A stretch of DNA of 64,000 nt from an uncultured Acidobacteriota bacterium (lineage in GTDB: Bacteria > Actinomycetota > Acidimicrobiia > Spongiisociales > ZC4RG35), in NCBI GenBank assembly GCA_963828465.1, contig CAWHEU010000018.1, forward strand, positions 323,492 to 387,491. The letters run 5' to 3'. Made by a program: the position numbers and the translations under genes. The notes under the pieces are model-generated. The model was not told the origin of the DNA, made no database searches, and saw nothing but the letters and a program-made list of their open reading frames with translations. This document shows, in pieces, positions 6,457-36,151 of the stretch; position 1 is the first letter of the stretch; every line of letters starts with the position of its first letter.

Positions 6457-8070
6457 TCAGCCCTCTTCCATGAGGAGGTCGGCGTATTCGTTCCTCACGA
6501 CCTTCTTGTCGAACTTGCCAGTGCCTGTCTTGGGAATCTGGTCGATGAACAGGATCTTGTCGGGCAGCCACCACTTGGCGACCCGCTCCTCGAGGAAGGA
6601 ATGCAAATCCTCCTCCGACACCTCGACGCCTTCACGGAGAACGACGAAGGCCACCGGGCGCTCCTGCCATTTGACGTGCTTCAGGCCAACGACGGTTGCC
6701 TCGCTCACGTCGGGGTGGGCCATGAGCGCATTCTCCAGATCGATCGATGAGATCCACTCCCCACCCGACTTGATCACGTCCTTGGCGCGGTCGGTGATCT
6801 TGATGTAGCCCTCGGGCGTGATCTTGCAGACGTCGCCGGTGCGGAGCCACCCGTCCTCGAACGACTGGGCGGAGCGGCTGTCCTGGTAGTACTCGGCGGC
6901 GATCCAGGGGCCGCGGATCAACAGCTCACCGAACGCCTCTCCATCGTGGGGCAGCTCCTCACCGATCTCGTCCACGATCTTGACCTGGAGCCCGGCCACC
7001 GGGATGCCTGCCGTCTCGAGGAAGTCGAGTTGCCGGTCGAGGTCCCACTCCTCCATCTCGGGCTTGAGGAGGCTGGTCGAGGCGACCGGGTTGGTCTCGG
7101 TCATGCCCCAGCCCTGCACGACCCGGATTCCCTGGACCTTCCAGTACCACTCGATCATCGCCCTTGGAACTGCCGATCCCCCGCACAGGAAAGCGCGGAT
7201 CGAAGAGAGGTCGACATCCGGGTTCGCTTCGAGATACTGCTTGATCCCCAACCAAACCGTGGGCACACCGGCGCTGAATGTCACCTTCTCCTGCTCGAGC
7301 AGGGGGACGAGACCCTGTGGGGTCAAGTCGGGACCGGGATAGGTGAGTTTGGCCCCCTGAGTGACGGCCATGAAGGGGTACCCCCAGGCGGCAGCATGGA
7401 ACATCGGCACAACCGGCAGGACGTTGTCGCTCGGGAGCATGTTGAAGTTGGCCAAGTTGGAGATCGTGTGCAGGTATGTGGATCGCTGCGTGTAGGCGAC
7501 CCCTTTCGGGTTGCCCGTCGTTCCCGACGAGTAACAGAACATCATCGGGGACCGCTCGTCGAGCTGGGGCCAGGGTCCGTGAGGCTCGGCGTCCCCGATC
7601 AGGTCCTCGTAGGCGATCGATCCCGGGATCGCATCCGAGGCCGACTCCCCCATGACGACGAAGGTCTCCACCGTCTTCAGCTCCGGTGTGATCGGTCCCA
7701 GGAGCGGAGCTAGATCGGGGTCGACGAACAGCACCTTGTCCCCGGCGTGGTTGATGATGTAGGCGATCTGATCGGCGAAGAGCCTGATGTTGACGGTGTG
7801 GCAGACGAGCCCGGTATTGGCGGTGGCCCAATAGAGCTCGTGATGGCGGCGGTTGTTCCAGGCAAAGGTGCCCACCGGGTCGCCCTGCGAGAGACCCAGG
7901 GCCTCGAAGGCGGTGGCGAGTCGTCTCACCCTGGTGTCGGTCTCGCCGTAGGTGGTGCGGGTCACCGACCGATCGGCCTCGACGGAGACGATCTCCTGGT
8001 CCGGGTAGAGCCAGACCGCCCGGTCGTAGAGGGTGGAGAGGTTCAGCGGGAAGTCCTGCATGTGTGGCAT
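6457..8070 (-). CDS. Fatty-acid--CoA ligase (AlkK/DmdB-like)
   Basis: YSSGTTGNPKG, VVPMFH, GWGMTET, DRAKDVIKSGGEWISS. Confidence 0.93.
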   Translation of the reverse strand: MPHMQDFPLNLSTLYDRAVWLYPDQEIVSVEADRSVTRTTYGETDTRVRRLATAFEALGLSQGDPVGTFAWNNRRHHELYWATANTGLVCHTVNIRLFADQIAYIINHAGDKVLFVDPDLAPLLGPITPELKTVETFVVMGESASDAIPGSIAYEDLIGDAEPHGPWPQLDERSPMMFCYSSGTTGNPKGVAYTQRSTYLHTISNLANFNMLPSDNVLPVVPMFHAAAWGYPFMAVTQGAKLTYPGPDLTPQGLVPLLEQEKVTFSAGVPTVWLGIKQYLEANPDVDLSSIRAFLCGGSAVPRAMIEWYWKVQGIRVVQGWGMTETNPVASTSLLKPEMEEWDLDRQLDFLETAGIPVAGLQVKIVDEIGEELPHDGEAFGELLIRGPWIAAEYYQDSRSAQSFEDGWLRTGDVCKITPEGYIKITDRAKDVIKSGGEWISSIDLENALMAHPDVSEATVVGLKHVKWQERPVAFVVLREGVEVSEEDLHSFLEERVAKWWLPDKILFIDQIPKTGTGKFDKKVVRNEYADLLMEEG

Positions 8071-8681
8071 CAGGCGCCTCCGATCAGCTTCTGCTTCTCT
8101 GCCTCGAACTCGACATCGCTCAGCTTGCCTTCGTCGTGGAGCCGAGACAGTGTGGCGAGCTGGGAAGCGGAGCTTTCTGCCGCCGCCGCCCGTCCCCCTG
8201 ATTGCAAGGAGTGCTGGCGATCCTCCCTCGCCTGATAGATCAGCGACTGGATCGCCTCTGGATCGGGAATATCGGTGTAGTGGGTTTGCCCGTGGGTCCC
8301 GGCCGACTCGATGAGGAGATCACCGGTCCCGAAAATCCGCTCCCATGCCGATTGCTGAAACGCCACGTCGTTGATCACCTCGAGCGGGAGCTCTTTGCCC
8401 TGTTTGGAAAGGAGGCCCACGCGGTGGATCAGGCGCTCAGTCGTAATGACGTGCAGCGTGGTGAACCAGCGGATGAACCCTCTCGCCGTCAGCACGAGCC
8501 ACAGGATGATGAGGGCGCCGATCACCCACAGAGCCCAATCGAATCCCTGGAACGCGAGGAACACGATGACTGCGAGGGCGAGGATGGAGAGAATGGCTTC
8601 CTTGAGGATCCCGGACCAGTGAGGTCTGAATTCGGCCTTGATCTCCTCGCCCGGGCTGAGCAGTTTCTCTGGATACGCCAT
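8070..8681 (-). CDS. Membrane protein with bacterial PH domain and C-terminal SHOCT
   Basis: 2 TM; ITTERLIHRVGLL...GTGDLLIESAG; LSRLHDEGKLSDVEFEAEKQKL; leaderless TAGCCT-N6-ATG. Confidence 0.85.
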   Translation of the reverse strand: MAYPEKLLSPGEEIKAEFRPHWSGILKEAILSILALAVIVFLAFQGFDWALWVIGALIILWLVLTARGFIRWFTTLHVITTERLIHRVGLLSKQGKELPLEVINDVAFQQSAWERIFGTGDLLIESAGTHGQTHYTDIPDPEAIQSLIYQAREDRQHSLQSGGRAAAAESSASQLATLSRLHDEGKLSDVEFEAEKQKLIGGA

Positions 8682-8721
8682 GGCGGCAGGCTACCGATCA
8701 GGCCGTTTGGATGAGTCCCCA

Positions 8722-9081
8722 CACAACGAGAAAGTCCCGAGGGAGCCTTGGCCGAAGCCTCAACCCTCTCGGGACTCTCGCCCATCCGGTGTCAGGCCGG
8801 GGACCCAACTCCGAATGGAGTTCTTGCCGATGGCCGAAGCCGCCGGCAGGTGTGCGATCCGAAGATCGCGACCTCCCCGTCTCCGGGAAGACCTTGCGAG
8901 TCGTGAGACCCGCCGTTCGGTGACCGCTCGACGATCCCGAAGGATCCCCGTCCGGTCGTCCGACCGTCCCTGGGGCCCTCAGTTTCCCGGTGACTCCAGG
9001 TTCCCGCACCACGGCCTCGGAGCGGCTCTCACCACTCCGAACCTCTTGATTCGGGCCGCCGCCGGGTTTCCCCTTCGGCGT
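8722..9081 (-). ncRNA. Candidate structured non-coding RNA 1 (~360 nt)
   Basis: Non-coding gap with four cUUCGg tetraloop stems, GAAA/GAGA loops, its own promoter and a terminator-like 3' hairpin. Confidence 0.7.
8728..8779 (-). terminator. 3' hairpin / intrinsic terminator of RNA 1
   Basis: GAGAGTCCCGAGAGGG...GGC-TTCG-GCC...CCCTCGGGACTTTCTC followed by GTTGTGT. Confidence 0.6.
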
Positions 9082-9088
9082 GGGTGGA

Positions 9089-9117
9089 AACGTAGACCGG
9101 CACCATGGTGCTGGCAA
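9089..9117 (-). promoter_or_regulatory. Sigma-70-type promoter TTGCCA-N17-TACGTT for RNA 1
   Basis: -35 at 9117-9112, -10 at 9094-9089, A at 9081 as likely +1. Confidence 0.7.
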
Positions 9118-9191
9118 CTCCAGGCACTGATTCTTTTTCGCGAGGTGATCAATAGTTTCCGCGGTGTCTGTCGGGGCTGGGGAAGACGCAC

Positions 9192-10280
9192 CTATCGGGG
9201 TCGTTTCAGTCTGACTCTGGAGACACCGAGGCGGATGATCTGAAGACCTTCACGGTGTACGGAGACATGATGGTGAAACCAGCACAGGGTGATCAGATTG
9301 TCCGCATCGGTCTTTCCACCGTGTGACCAGGGGATGACATGGTGGACTTGGAGCCGATAACTGAACGGGCAGCCTTCCACGGTGCATCCGCCGTCACGGT
9401 GGAGGACATGACGTCTGAGTTTCCGGTCCACAGTCCTGGATCGGCGTCCCAAATCGAGCGGTTTGTGTTCGGCTCGACCGATCAGGTCCACATTCCCGTT
9501 ACAGAGGACCTCTGCGAGGGTGCCCGGTCCCAGTCTCGGACCGGCAAGGACGGAAACGCCCCGTTCGCCGCTGGTTTCCGCCGCTGTCGGGGCGTCGACG
9601 ATCACTGCCAAATCGACCGGCGGGGACTCTTCGCCCGAAACGCTCTGATAGGGGGATTCTTCGCCCGAAACGCTCTGATAGAGGGAGTCCTGACAGATGG
9701 CGACCAGGGCCAAAGCCCGCCGTTCCGCCACTGCCAGACGTTGATCTCCCGGGACGATCTCATCGGCCCTCTGGTCGACCGCCTTCTCCATGATCCGGGC
9801 ATCCAAACCGGGGAGCTCACCCCAAAACGATGTGGCCAGCTCATCGGAATGGCCGAAATGGACAAAACCATTCCCGGTTCTCCGTTCACGATTCCGGGTC
9901 AACCGCTTGTGATCAGCCACCAGACGACGCAACCCCGAAATGTCGTAACCCTCATGACCGGCACGGGATTCAGAGGGAAGCCGAGACAGCTGTTCCGCCC
10001 GATCAAAGGAGACCTCACCAGCCGCTAGCTGCTCGACCACATCGGGAGCCTCCGCCAGACGAGTTGCCGTCCAACACAGACTCCGGGCCGTCTCATGAGA
10101 CACATCAGCACGAGCCGCCATCCAATCAATGATCGACCGGCAACCATCAGCCAAATGAGACTTCCGGCGACGTTTCTCCGCCACCGCCGCCATCTGCAAC
10201 AACCGGATCGTGGCGATCTCCCGCTCACCATCAGCAATCAACTGATCCAGTTGATCCTCGGAGTAACTCCCCAACTCCAT
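9192..10280 (-). CDS. DUF222 (13E12-like) HNH endonuclease, copy 1
   Basis: RDGGCTVEGC...VHHVIPWSHGGKTDADNLITLCWFHH HNH motif; GEVSFDRA DUF222-like core; ATG at 10280 after leaderless promoter. Confidence 0.9.
   Translation of the reverse strand: MELGSYSEDQLDQLIADGEREIATIRLLQMAAVAEKRRRKSHLADGCRSIIDWMAARADVSHETARSLCWTATRLAEAPDVVEQLAAGEVSFDRAEQLSRLPSESRAGHEGYDISGLRRLVADHKRLTRNRERRTGNGFVHFGHSDELATSFWGELPGLDARIMEKAVDQRADEIVPGDQRLAVAERRALALVAICQDSLYQSVSGEESPYQSVSGEESPPVDLAVIVDAPTAAETSGERGVSVLAGPRLGPGTLAEVLCNGNVDLIGRAEHKPLDLGRRSRTVDRKLRRHVLHRDGGCTVEGCPFSYRLQVHHVIPWSHGGKTDADNLITLCWFHHHVSVHREGLQIIRLGVSRVRLKRPR
9622..9681. repeat. In-frame 30-bp tandem duplication (YQSVSGEESP x2) in HNH gene
   Basis: TCTTCGCCCGAAACGCTCTGATAG at 9628 and 9658. 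Confidence 0.9.
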
Positions 10281-10287
10281 ACCCGAC

Positions 10288-10310
10288 AACGTACGAGGAG
10301 GGCGTGACAA
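10288..10310 (-). promoter_or_regulatory. PafBC/RecA-NDp-like promoter TTGTCAC-N10-TACGTT
   Basis: Motif then 7 nt to ATG of HNH copy 1. Confidence 0.7.
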
Positions 10311-10454
10311 ATTTGCCCTTGGAAGAAGAAGATCTGAGTGAATTTCTCTAGAGAATTGCCCCCGCGATCAGTTGCGCCACGTAGCCCAGGTTGAAGTTCT
10401 TGGAGACTCAAGCCGGACCTTGCCCAGACCACTGAAATACCGGCCGAGGGTAAG

Positions 10455-10604
10455 ACGCGAGAAACCCCGAGAAAGCTTTGGCCGAAGCCGAAGCCCTCTC
10501 GGGGCTCTCAGTGCCACTCGACCGGGAAAGCGGGCCCCCAGTCAGGTGGCGATCCGGAGGGGCCGAAGCCTCTCCTTCCCCGACCCGGGCGAACCCGTGT
10601 CGGT
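10455..10604 (-). ncRNA. Candidate structured non-coding RNA 2 (~150 nt)
   Basis: Four consecutive hairpins, three UUCG-capped; own promoter; 3' hairpin homologous to that of RNA 1. Confidence 0.65.
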
Positions 10605-10611
10605 AAGCGGC

Positions 10612-10641
10612 AAAGTACGAGAACCCGACCTCACCCGTCAA
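10612..10641 (-). promoter_or_regulatory. Sigma-70-type promoter TTGACG-N18-TACTTT for RNA 2
   Basis: -35 at 10641-10636, -10 at 10617-10612, A at 10604 as likely +1. Confidence 0.7.
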
Positions 10642-10700
10642 GCCATACCGGAGCCTTGTTTTCGCGGCCTAGCCGATCTTTTCGCGTTTAGCCTTCGCCC

Positions 10701-11336
10701 ATGGCAACGGCCCGAAAGAGCGTGCCGACAGCATGGGTCGTGGTCTTCTTTCTCATCGCAGTCGTACTCGTCTTCGCCGTGATCCGGGTGACCATCGACA
10801 GCCAGAACATCGCCAACGGAGTGATCCCGAACGAGGGCGAGTTCGATCGCCGTTATGCCCAGTATCCGATCCTGGCCTACGCCCACATCCTCCCCGGAGT
10901 CGTCTACCTGGTCCTTGCTCCATTCCAGGTCTCCCGCCGATTCCGCAATCGCCACCTCGACCTGCACCGAAAGATGGGCCGCTTCCTGGTGCCGATCGGA
11001 ATCCTTTCTGGAGTGCTCGGAGTCATATTCGGCTTCTTCTTCTCCTTCGGCGGGTTCGCAGAGGCCAGTGCCGCTGTGGTGTTCGGCACCTGGTTCGTCA
11101 TCGCCCTTGCCCTGGCCTACAGCTACATCCGAGCCGGCGACACCGTCCGCCACCGCCGATGGATGATCCGGGCCTTCGCCATCGGGCTCGGCGTCGGGAC
11201 GATCAGGATCTGGGTCGGGCTGTTCCAGGGATTCGGCCTATTCGACGAAGTCACTTCCTTCGGCGTGGCCTTCTGGTTGTCGTGGACCCTGCACGTGATC
11301 GCGGCCGAGATCTGGCTGTGGCGACGGCCCACCTGA
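10701..11336 (+). CDS. DUF2306 family membrane protein
   Basis: HILPG...LAPFQ...LHRKMGR and HRRWMIRAF motifs. Confidence 0.85.
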   Translation: MATARKSVPTAWVVVFFLIAVVLVFAVIRVTIDSQNIANGVIPNEGEFDRRYAQYPILAYAHILPGVVYLVLAPFQVSRRFRNRHLDLHRKMGRFLVPIGILSGVLGVIFGFFFSFGGFAEASAAVVFGTWFVIALALAYSYIRAGDTVRHRRWMIRAFAIGLGVGTIRIWVGLFQGFGLFDEVTSFGVAFWLSWTLHVIAAEIWLWRRPT

Positions 11337-11352
11337 CCGATCTCCCCATTCC

Positions 11353-11374
11353 TGTCACAGGCCGGTCTTACACT
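11353..11374 (+). promoter_or_regulatory. PafBC/RecA-NDp-like promoter TGTCAC-N10-TACACT
   Basis: Motif then 7 nt to GTG 11382. Confidence 0.7.
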
Positions 11375-11381
11375 CGGCATC

Positions 11382-12182
11382 GTGACTGTAGAACTGGAAT
11401 TGGCCCCCCTGGAGACCCTCTCCCCGAGCCGTGCCGGGGACTTCAAGGCGTGCCCCCAGCTCTTCAAGTTCCGGGCCATCGACCGTCTCAGCGAGCCCGC
11501 ATCGGTGTATCAGGCCCGGGGTACCACGGCCCATCTCGCACTGCAGCGACTCTTCGACCACCCCTCCATCGATCGTTCGCCCGAGCTCCTGTATGACCTG
11601 TTCCGCGACGCCTGGACCGAGCTCCGAGGGAGCGAGGAGTTCGAAGACCTCTTCGGCGACACCGACGAGGAGCGGCAATGGGGCGTGGAGTCCCTCGCCC
11701 TTCTCACCAACTACTTCAGCATCGAGGACCCGACCGGGTTCGACCCGGTGGACCGCGAGCTGGACATGCTCGAAGACCTCGACGGGATCACGATCAGGGG
11801 GATCCTCGACCGGATTGACCGCGACGACGACGGTCGACTCGTCATCACCGACTACAAGACGGGCAAGGCCCCACCGGAGAGGTACGCCCTCCCCGCCTTC
11901 TTCGCCCTGAAGATCTACGCCCTTCTCATTCGACGCCGCACCGGGGAGACCCCGAAGGAGCTTCGCCTCCTCTATCTGAGCGGGCCGACCCTTTACAGGC
12001 TCGACATCGACGACCGCCAACTCGATGCCATGGACTCGCAGCTGCGGGCGCTGTGGAACGCGATCGACCGGGCCCTGGCCACTCGAAACTTCCCCACCCG
12101 TCCCGGCACATTGTGCAACTGGTGCTCGTTCAAGGAGATCTGCCCGGCGTTCGCCGAGGCCCCGATGGAGAAAGCCTCCTAG
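11382..12182 (+). CDS. RecB-family PD-(D/E)XK exonuclease (Cas4-like, Fe-S staple)
   Basis: LSPSRAGDFKACP, GILDRID, ITDYKTG, CNWCSFKEICP. Confidence 0.92.
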   Translation: MTVELELAPLETLSPSRAGDFKACPQLFKFRAIDRLSEPASVYQARGTTAHLALQRLFDHPSIDRSPELLYDLFRDAWTELRGSEEFEDLFGDTDEERQWGVESLALLTNYFSIEDPTGFDPVDRELDMLEDLDGITIRGILDRIDRDDDGRLVITDYKTGKAPPERYALPAFFALKIYALLIRRRTGETPKELRLLYLSGPTLYRLDIDDRQLDAMDSQLRALWNAIDRALATRNFPTRPGTLCNWCSFKEICPAFAEAPMEKAS

Positions 12183-34960: not shown

Positions 34961-35051
34961 TGAAGCCGAGCAGTCGGTTTCGCACGGCCGAATTTGGCCG
35001 TGGGACCTCACTCGGAGAGGTGGAAGAAATCTTGGACGAACCCCTTGTTTC

Positions 35052-35075
35052 TGTCCCACCACGAACGTATGTTCG
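35052..35075 (+). promoter_or_regulatory. PafBC-like promoter TGTCCC-N10-TATGTT overlapped by LexA SOS box CGAAC-GTAT-GTTCG
   Basis: Perfect CGAAC-N4-GTTCG at 35062-35075; ATG at 35080. Confidence 0.8.
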
Positions 35076-35079
35076 GGGT

Positions 35080-36151
35080 ATGGATTTAGATCTGCTGTCC
35101 CAGGATCAGAAGGAACGGATCCTCGTCGGGGCCGAAGCCGAGATCGCCCGGCTTCGTGGTGTTCAGCTCGATGTGCTCGAGGATCTGGACCGGTGTCAGG
35201 TCGCCACCGCAGATGGGTGCCGGTCCCTGTCCGAATGGGCGACGGCACGGTTGGATCTTCATCCCGACACTGCGAAATCCCTGGTGCGGACCATGCGTCG
35301 CACCGTGGAACGTCCCGACCTGCGGGAAGCACTGGCGAGTGGTGAGATCACCTTCGACCGGGCGGAGGCACTGTCCCGGATTCCCGACGAGGTGGGGCTT
35401 CTCGAACATTTGGATGTGGCCGGAGTGCGGCGGGAAGCAGCCAACCGAGTCCGGATCAGCGCCGAAGACGAATATCGGACCGCTTCTGACCAGTTCCTCG
35501 TGATGCAACCCTCACTGGACGAATCGTGGTGGAAACTGTGGGGTGGCCTCGACGGAGCCACCGGCGCTCTCGTCGACAAGACAATCTCCGAAAAGGCTGA
35601 TGATCTACCCCTCCTCCCCGACGGGAGCAGAGGCGACAGTTCATGGCGGAAAGCAATGGCCCTGGCCGAACTCTGCATCAGCGACGATCCCCCACCCGCC
35701 CAGCTCACCGTATTCGTCGACACCACCCAAGCCACCCCATCCAACGGGCAGGCCGGTGTCATCTTGGAAGCCGGACCCCGGATCGGCCGGGACGCCCTCG
35801 AAGCCATCCTCTGCGATGCGGTCACCGAAATCACCGCCCGAGGCAGACGACGGCACACCAATGGTCTACGGACGGAAAACCAGGACCATCCCACCCGCCC
35901 TTAGACGGGCCATCATCCACCGCGACGGAAACACCTGCACCGGCGACGGCTGTCCCAGCACCAACCGCCTCCAAGTCCACCACATCATCCCCTGGTCACA
36001 AGGCGGAACCACCAACCCCGACAATCTGATCACCCTCTGCTGGTTCCACCATCAGATCGTCGTCCACCAACAAGGCTTCCAGCCCTACCACCACCCAGAA
36101 CACGGGCGGATCCGATTCCGCAAGCCCGCCCTCCGCGGGCCACCGGGTTAA
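35080..36151 (+). CDS. DUF222 HNH endonuclease, copy 2, frameshifted near 35842
   Basis: GEITFDRA core in one frame; RDGNTCTGDGC...VHHIIPWSQGG...LCWFHH in next frame. Confidence 0.85.

Follow-up and report, generated by a model that had tools for sequence, protein, structure and literature searches.

Sibling structured RNA genes of an uncatalogued family in an Acidimicrobiia genome, and the DUF222-HNH gene found between them

Layout of the locus and its transcripts

The locus described here lies in a 64,000-nucleotide (nt) window, the whole stretch of DNA analysed, on contig CAWHEU010000018.1 of an uncultured member of the Acidimicrobiia. Positions are those of the window, and elements of the locus are on the minus strand unless marked otherwise. 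In minus-strand order, a structured RNA (RNA2) is followed by a damage-type promoter with a DUF222-HNH gene and then by a second structured RNA (RNA1). An earlier sequence-only reading had proposed this same layout, and every element is present where that reading had placed it. RNA1 and RNA2 are real genes, siblings within a family that has no Rfam entry, and they are kept independently of the HNH gene. Very probably they form a tandem pair of small RNA (sRNA) genes with an HNH cassette lodged in the gap, the RNAs not being partners of the nuclease. The genome studied (G000) was compared with 60 relatives, 61 genomes in all.

10457..10604, minus strand: RNA2, ~148 nt, structured, 5' end inferred from the -10 element
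10458..10510, minus strand: RNA2 terminal hairpin with a UUCG loop and TTTCTCGCG tail, helix 5 of the consensus fold
10311..10456, minus strand: variable spacer DNA from the RNA2 end to the HNH promoter, diverging right after the RNA2 tail in relatives
10288..10310, minus strand: predicted HNH promoter TTGTCA-N11-TACGTT, read from the sequence, directly before the ATG
9192..10280, minus strand: DUF222-HNH gene, 362 amino acids (aa), Pfam PF02720 and PF01844
9169..9191, minus strand: 3' tail of the HNH unit, where nucleotide likeness to a paralogue ends
8726..9081, minus strand: RNA1, ~356 nt, multi-hairpin, with many UUCG and GNRA loops
8730..8779, minus strand: RNA1 terminal hairpin, sibling of the RNA2 hairpin, helix 14 of the consensus fold
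8070..8681, minus strand: bPH_2 and SHOCT membrane-protein gene (Pfam), the downstream neighbour outside the RNAs, syntenic with the array across the order
10701-11336, plus strand: DUF2306 gene (Pfam), divergent neighbour
11382-12182, plus strand: Cas4/AddB-like PD-(D/E)XK nuclease gene (Pfam, NCBIfam, PADLOC), divergent neighbour

Both RNAs do end in the same hairpin, as had been noticed from the sequence. The two copies (8736-8779 and 10466-10509) are 84% identical over 44 nt and fold as a long hairpin with a UUCG loop; in a pairwise alignment of the RNA1 and RNA2 flanks, likeness is confined to this hairpin. A third sibling sRNA gene, with the same box pair upstream and the same terminal hairpin, is located on another contig (C22:129286-129530, plus strand, corresponding to L003:1320-1560). 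Its promoter reads TTGCTC, a 17-nt spacer and TATGGT, and it sits between a small open reading frame (ORF) and a TetR-like gene, with no HNH gene found nearby. When all three siblings are aligned together, likeness extends to the box and promoter region as well as the hairpin.

Six metatranscriptome runs contain a small share of the stretch's words, and contigs from four of them (X15, X17, X18 and X20, from four studies of soil or rhizosphere) were placed on 8000-11400 at a likeness of at least 88%. Both RNAs appear in these libraries as discrete units of high depth. The summed depths, for X15, X17, X18 and X20 in that order, are as follows.

RNA1, bin 8798-8911: 87; 434,160; 439,402; 11,657
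RNA1, bin 8912-9025: 504; 682,793; 89,868; 87,682
RNA2, bins 10394-10621: 0; 35-714; 131-145; 16-28
HNH gene, bins 9140-10279: up to 3.0; 0; 0; up to 5.4
bPH_2 gene: up to 2.6; 0; 0; up to 2.1
DUF2306 and PD-(D/E)XK genes: up to 19; 0; 0; up to 3.6

Each RNA has its own contigs, and none lie on the intervening DNA in X17 and X18. The depths on RNA1 reach ~1e5 times those on the HNH gene or the neighbouring genes. The flanking genes serve as a silent control, and gaps of three to five orders of magnitude are too large to come from DNA carry-over. The RNA2 pieces span 10457-10596 and the RNA1 pieces 8728-9072 and stop there, in keeping with the sizes of ~150 and ~360 nt predicted earlier. RNA1 contigs have loose ends at 9070 and 9072, presumably sequencing adapters. 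Given the loss of 5' bases in such libraries, the contigs fit the starts predicted from the -10 elements, near 10604 and 9081, and ends just past the hairpins.

The RNA1 region folds at -255.8 kcal/mol (z -5.3), which none of 100 shuffles equalled; for the RNA2 region the excess is smaller (z -2.46), with 1 of 100 shuffles folding equally well. The RNA1 consensus, computed with RNAalifold from 22 genus sequences, is a series of many short hairpins with 94 pairs, 10 of them showing compensatory changes. Pairing holds in 98.8% of its cells, a share that falls to 34-56% once the partners are shifted by 1-3 columns, and 37 cells are changed on both sides, a number reached by 0 of 500 shuffles. The RNA2 consensus (21 sequences) has 51 pairs, four of them compensatory, with 99.3% of cells paired against 37-64% when slid; it comprises four helical elements, or five helices in the consensus-fold count. 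RNA1 also gains and loses whole hairpins, with an 89-nt internal deletion in G015 (L068) and G019 (L069) and extra hairpins in several other genomes, which argues against coding. Two metatranscriptome contigs skip 108-109 nt of RNA1, joining 8812 to 8921 and 8814 to 8924.

Upstream boxes and distribution of the RNA family

Members of the RNA family have in common a pair of CGCGAAAA boxes upstream, a promoter of the actinobacterial type, a body that is variable and rich in hairpins, and a 3' hairpin that hardly varies. The upstream elements of the two genes in the window are these.

10659..10686, minus strand: RNA2 box pair, two CGCGAAAA whose starts are 20 nt apart, preceding the RNA2 promoter
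10612..10641, minus strand: RNA2 promoter, -35 TTGACG (10636-10641), 18-nt spacer, -10 TACTTT (10612-10617), hexamers conserved
9135..9163, minus strand: RNA1 box pair, a degenerate CGCGGAAA (9156-9163) and CGCGAAAA (9135-9142), upstream of RNA1
9089..9117, minus strand: RNA1 promoter, -35 TTGCCA (9112-9117), 17-nt spacer, -10 TACGTT (9089-9094), hexamers conserved

In each unit, CGCGAAAA boxes ~20-21 nt apart are followed 17 nt on by a -35 element, a variable spacer of 17-18 nt and a -10 element of the TAnnnT type, and the same architecture precedes the C22 copy and the units in other families of the order. The RNA2 boxes are invariant in 21 genus sequences while adjacent bases change, and the proximal RNA1 box is invariant in 22. 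Similarly, the RNA2 hexamers are conserved while the spacer between them varies (21 sequences), as is the case for RNA1 in the genus alignment. At the other end of each gene is the stem of a putative terminator, and pieces of contigs stop there, at 10457 and 8728; the tail is short (TTTCTCG), with no more than 4 T in 8.

Across the whole genome, a scan detects the box pair at no more than five sites: before each of the three sRNA genes, between rplI and dnaB (C20:187515, plus strand, before dnaB) and upstream of dnaA (C20:158243, minus strand). In the relatives (loci L240-L287), the full architecture of boxes, -35, variable spacer and -10 is found upstream of dnaB in 16 of 22 fetched genus loci, G000 included, or 15 of 20 without two loci from unpublished genomes. 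Upstream of dnaA, all 23 loci examined in 22 genomes (counting G000 and leaving out unpublished genomes) retain the box pair while neighbouring bases vary, and no obvious -35 is present at the same distance from the boxes in these 23 loci. The occurrence of one box pair before sRNA genes, dnaB and dnaA suggests that a predicted DNA-binding factor may be common to them. The conservation of the boxes at dnaB and dnaA also provides a handle on the regulation of the RNA family.

BLAST searches with the RNA1 flank give matches in 49 of the 61 genomes and searches with the RNA2 flank in 52. Within the genus, each flank matches in 30 of 30 genomes and near full length in 27 of 30, a tally that includes three unpublished genomes (G018, G027 and G028). 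In other families of the order, BLAST matches the hairpin only, as two or three tandem copies ~0.4-0.9 kilobases (kb) apart; there, box pair, promoter and hairpin recur as two or three tandem units beside the same PDDEXK gene. Of the 36 loci fetched from relatives, 34 have this divergent gene next to the array; L056 and L071 are among them, L079 is without it, and the count needs caution at L079 and L084, which are short contigs. The array is usually upstream of the same bPH_2 gene in these 36 loci.

Beyond these relatives, an exact IUPAC pattern of the hairpin matches at least 136 stretches of a species-representative genome collection. Among the matches listed (80), all titles are those of metagenome-assembled genomes of Acidimicrobiia or lower ranks, Actinomycetota, Actinomycetes, "uncultured bacterium" or "Acidobacteriota". 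The pattern occurs in 3 of 401 genomes drawn across the phylum, all three from the order to which G000 belongs. Rfam 15 gives zero matches at gathering score over the whole window and zero at E<=10 in 8400-11000, and a literature search turned up no description of these RNAs, nor of an RNA partner for DUF222-HNH proteins.

Some variation in the arrangement of the array was also observed. RNA2 is inverted relative to RNA1 in L055 (G001) and L056 (G002), where the two are ~1.8 kb apart, with a methyltransferase-like ORF between them in G001. In G029 the whole locus occurs twice, on contigs L076 and L077 with spacers of 961 and 317 nt, which could reflect a mixture of strains in the bin (contamination 5) or a true duplication. 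The PDDEXK gene (11382-12182 and its counterparts in L055-L090) encodes a C-terminal Cys cluster, and a DUF2306 or oxidoreductase gene intervenes between it and the array in some genomes.

The DUF222-HNH gene and the gap between the RNAs

The HNH gene was detected as an ORF of 372 aa opening with TTG (9192..10310, minus strand), in which both the HNH domain (E 1e-09; 38.8 bits, cut-off 21.4) and DUF222 (E 1.4e-07; 31.6 bits, cut-off 24.4) pass the Pfam cut-offs. The DNA flanking this ORF is non-coding as far as DUF2306 upstream and the bPH_2/SHOCT gene downstream. The TTG belongs to TTGTCA, and 7 nt separate the motif TTGTCA-N11-TACGTT from an ATG at 10280. This ATG is probably the true start, giving a protein of 362 aa and, probably, a leaderless messenger RNA. 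There are 334 homologues at E<=1e-10; the best 120 of these are named HNH endonuclease or DUF222 protein of Acidimicrobiia, and most are 351-356 aa long. The greater length here is due to an in-frame 30-nt tandem duplication at 9622-9681 (97% identical), which adds 10 residues (YQSVSGEESP twice). The predicted catalytic His and zinc-binding Cys and His residues of the HNH motif (C299, H313, H314, C333, H336, H337 and H342) are invariant in an alignment of 29 sequences. A PDB sequence search with the protein gives no matches at E<=0.01. The AlphaFold2 model (29 sequences) has a mean predicted local distance difference test score (pLDDT) of 66.3 and a predicted template modelling score of 0.37; it is confident only for residues 1-125 and 285-362, residues 126-162 and 199-282 having pLDDT below 50. 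A Foldseek search of this model against the PDB gives no match at E<=0.001; the helical part has weak ParB/Noc matches.

The damage-type promoter that the sequence-only reading had recognised is there, at 10288-10310, and we take it to resemble the RecA-independent (PafBC-type) damage promoter of actinobacteria. On that motif, the gene may be induced by DNA damage. A TGTCAC-N11-TAYGTT motif precedes five of the seven DUF222-HNH loci of G000 (four of the six other loci), and the strict form TTGTCR-N11-TAnnnT occurs eight times genome-wide. The six other loci are at ~35050-36127 of the window (plus strand), C18:220741-221804, C5:36500-37433, C13:38022-39065, C21:82758-83726 and C4:128006-128314, and several of these six are split into two or three frames. 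The nearest paralogue, C18:220741, is 79% identical over 1141 nt, a likeness that spans only 10294 to 9169, with the -10 element at one end and a point 23 nt beyond the stop codon at the other. The repeated unit therefore consists of the promoter, the ORF and a short tail, and excludes both RNAs. We read the HNH gene as a multicopy, decaying, selfish-looking and damage-induced predicted nuclease gene of the REP13E12 kind.

The gap itself, measured from the RNA2 tail to the RNA1 box, was compared in 20 loci of relatives (19 genomes) with both RNAs co-oriented on one contig. In seven loci it is free of genes and only 49, 63, 69, 71, 82, 82 and 160 nt long. It is 317-376 nt in two loci, one with an 86-aa HNH remnant, and 961-2302 nt in the other 11. 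The sequences of the relatives diverge completely right after the conserved RNA2 tail. The contents of the long spacers differ: they include a methyltransferase gene with a helix-turn-helix domain (G009 and G011), genes for a DsrE-like protein and a flavoprotein oxidoreductase (G004, G008 and G024), a bPH_1 ORF (G012 and G019) and DUF222-HNH genes.

By tblastn with this HNH protein (E<=1e-5), HNH sequences occupy 8 of the 25 loci from the genus and none of the 11 from other genera and families. In G015 and G019 the gene in the gap is full length with 72-75% identity; in G030 it is cut by the contig end, in G006 it is split by a frameshift, and in G020 the 86-aa remnant is left. In three further loci the HNH sequence is only 30-37% identical, being broken in G012, an intact DUF222 ORF in G023 and partial in G017. 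The occupied genomes are all among those with the highest RNA1 identity to G000 (91-95%).

A second variable spot is located right after the RNA1 hairpin (L057, L075, L059, L064, L074, L061, L062, L073, L076, L077 and L079). In several relatives it holds an alpha/beta-hydrolase and cyclase gene or an M24 peptidase gene, and in G000 it is empty.

The RNAs are thus conserved both with and without the HNH gene. The arrangement is best explained by two structured sRNA genes, each with a promoter of its own, that are conserved in tandem, RNA2 and then RNA1, and whose gap is a variable spot where different genes came and went. Among the closest relatives of G000 by RNA1 identity, the occupant is a self-contained DUF222-HNH cassette of ~1.13 kb with a damage-type promoter, a probably leaderless ORF and a short tail. 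The cassette family appears to be multicopy, often decaying and selfish-looking, comparable to the mycobacterial REP13E12, and would make no use of the RNAs; its selfish spread may have occurred by recombination or gene conversion. The array's spacers are a hot spot at which genes are gained and lost, and this would explain why unrelated genes, nucleases included, look "sandwiched" between RNAs. The sequence-only reading had offered this alternative, an HNH element inserted into a tandem noncoding RNA family, and the empty sites, the other cargo and the limits of the cassette bear it out.

Several observations weigh against this account. A generic scan of 8600-10750 for sigma-70 promoters and terminators calls none of either, so the promoter reading rests on the conservation pattern together with the transcript evidence. 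That evidence consists of contigs, which carry neither strand nor exact ends and whose depth sums all matching organisms. Covariation is modest: the tally of 10 compensatory pairs in RNA1 was reached by 23 of 500 shuffles and that of four in RNA2 by 5 of 500, and the support is moderate rather than strong because the aligned sequences are close relatives. The damage induction of the HNH gene is predicted from the general consensus of such promoters. Finally, two HNH lineages (72-100% and 30-37% aa identity) share one slot between flanks that are 91-94% identical, which could mean that the site attracts such genes; in G012, for instance, 10311-10440 is 94% identical, and the HNH sequence only 37%.

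It may be that the cassette homes to this site, perhaps through the hairpin or box DNA, without using the RNAs. The divergent alleles in the same slot, together with the broken copies and the 86-aa remnant, do resemble a cycle of invasion and decay, and the variable DNA starts exactly past the RNA2 tail in all loci. However, such homing is unlikely. G000 has seven HNH loci but only three hairpin copies, and the hairpin is absent near all six other HNH loci, which extends an earlier remark that the copy at 35080 lacks comparable flanks; six of the seven are therefore without such an RNA nearby. In addition, the C22 hairpin locus has no HNH gene and the gap also takes unrelated cargo. Only the relatives most like G000 in RNA1 have an HNH gene in the gap, for which one old insertion plus gene conversion would suffice, and two divergent alleles between near-identical flanks are explainable by gene conversion among paralogues.

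In another model, RNA1 would not be free-standing but would act in cis on the bPH_2 and AMP-ligase genes downstream, as their long leader or riboswitch. The end of RNA1 is 45 nt away from the start codon of bPH_2, and the orientation is the same in G000. This is very improbable, since in nine relatives (G003, G005, G007, G008, G010, G017, G024, G026 and G029) another gene lies between RNA1 and bPH_2, encoding an alpha/beta hydrolase-cyclase or an M24 peptidase where checked. The depth of contigs falls from 1e2-1e5 to 2.6 or less across the RNA1 hairpin (at 8684, from RNA1 into bPH_2), and the RNA2 and C22 siblings have other downstream neighbours.

Least probable of all is the guide, scaffold or antitoxin partnership put forward from the sequence: the genes adjoin physically and the HNH domain is weakly like that of IscB, but relatives keep the two RNAs adjacent with no HNH gene between them (the seven loci with spacers of 49-160 nt), an arrangement named beforehand as counting against a partnership, other loci hold other cargo there, the RNAs are order-wide while the HNH gene is limited to the closest relatives, six of seven HNH paralogues are without the RNAs, the protein has neither a RuvC nor an IscB architecture, and each RNA has a promoter and a putative terminator of its own and, in the case of RNA1, a depth far above that of the HNH gene. 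Elsewhere in the phylum, DUF222 (E<=1e-15) is present in 9 of 39 genomes outside the family of G000, the unpublished G078 among them, and all nine lack the hairpin pattern. Type I and type III toxin-antitoxin systems were considered as well and rejected: the RNAs are on the same strand as the gene, do not overlap it and persist in its absence. Seen as a nuclease-RNA system, the locus is ordinary; the underlying RNA family is real and uncatalogued. A tempting false lead is thereby removed, in that DUF222-HNH proteins gain no RNA partner here.

Comparison with known systems

Like the locus described here, IscB with its omega RNA (HEARO) is an HNH nuclease gene beside a structured RNA. Unlike that system, the RNAs here persist without the gene. 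With the NCBIfam guided_IscB model the protein reaches 29.9 bits, where the cut-off is 175, and the match covers only residues 281-343, which are the HNH domain; Pfam finds no RuvC domain in the protein, and there is no RuvC or PLMP part. No Rfam match to the HEARO/omega RNA is obtained at E<=10 in 8400-11000, and identity with this system was rejected.

The C-terminal HNH domain has its best, albeit weak, predicted fold matches among McrA-type HNH enzymes (EcoKMcrA, TagI and ScoMcrA), with 6ghc at E 0.019 and probability 0.98, and the protein also has a weak match to the PADLOC model mREase_IV (E 7e-4). These enzymes have no counterpart to the N-terminal helical DUF222 domain. The REP13E12-type DUF222-HNH genes of mycobacteria and free-standing selfish HNH genes are another parallel. 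With the REP13E12 type, the HNH gene shares the DUF222 and HNH architecture, the several copies per genome, many of them broken, and the damage-type promoter; we know of no biochemical activity for genes of this type. According to passages of a study of Mycobacterium tuberculosis, five putative HNH endonucleases rise after mitomycin C in a RecA-dependent manner (PMC8151990), whereas the motif here has a RecA-independent look.

As for the RNAs, there is about an even chance that they are abundant, stable RNAs that bind or sequester a protein. This is suggested by RNA1, which is long, almost wholly paired, capped by stable tetraloops and apparently very abundant. Such traits are those of 6S, Ms1, CsrB-like and OLE RNAs, not of sRNAs that pair through a seed. 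Action by base pairing is a distinctly weaker candidate, and other roles make up the remainder.

A more specific model, to which only a small chance is given, is that RNA1, RNA2 and the C22 copy are the Acidimicrobiia counterpart of global regulators of the 6S/Ms1 type, extremely abundant, sequestering a protein and driven through the tandem CGCGAAAA element. If so, the boxes before dnaB and dnaA would tie RNA synthesis, through a putative factor, to the control of replication or growth, and for the HNH cassettes the locus would be no more than a safe harbour. RNA1 resembles 6S and Ms1, abundant RNAs that bind RNA polymerase, as a highly structured, very abundant RNA of ~300 nt in an actinomycetotal lineage, and canonical 6S RNA (RF00013) has no match in G000 at E<=1, yet the fold is not 6S-like, being made of many short hairpins rather than a rod with a central bubble, and there is no Rfam match. 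The synteny does not fit Ms1 either. In passages of the Ms1 paper, the flanks of Ms1 are a gene for a HAD-IB hydrolase or for "inhibition of morphological differentiation" and an oxidoreductase gene, and these passages make no mention of Acidimicrobiia (PMC9130861). The neighbours here are PDDEXK_1, DUF2306 and bPH_2, not the HAD-IB hydrolase and oxidoreductase of those passages (PMC9130861), and identity with Ms1 was rejected. Whatever the role, an uncatalogued and very abundant RNA in a widespread uncultured soil lineage merits a targeted experiment.

Sibling sRNAs that are tandem and multicopy in one genome under one promoter motif are familiar in bacteria, examples being OmrA/OmrB, PrrF1/PrrF2, Qrr1-5 and LhrC1-5. 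RNA1 differs from these in being much longer and almost fully base-paired, with UUCG and GNRA loops. Nor is there a recognised seed region, target or regulator for RNA1 and RNA2, and their family is confined to one order of the Acidimicrobiia. In organization, however, they are alike: the genes lie side by side, each with a promoter and a putative terminator of its own, the copies share homologous modules in the form of an upstream cis element and a 3' module, and a further copy is present elsewhere in the genome, on C22.

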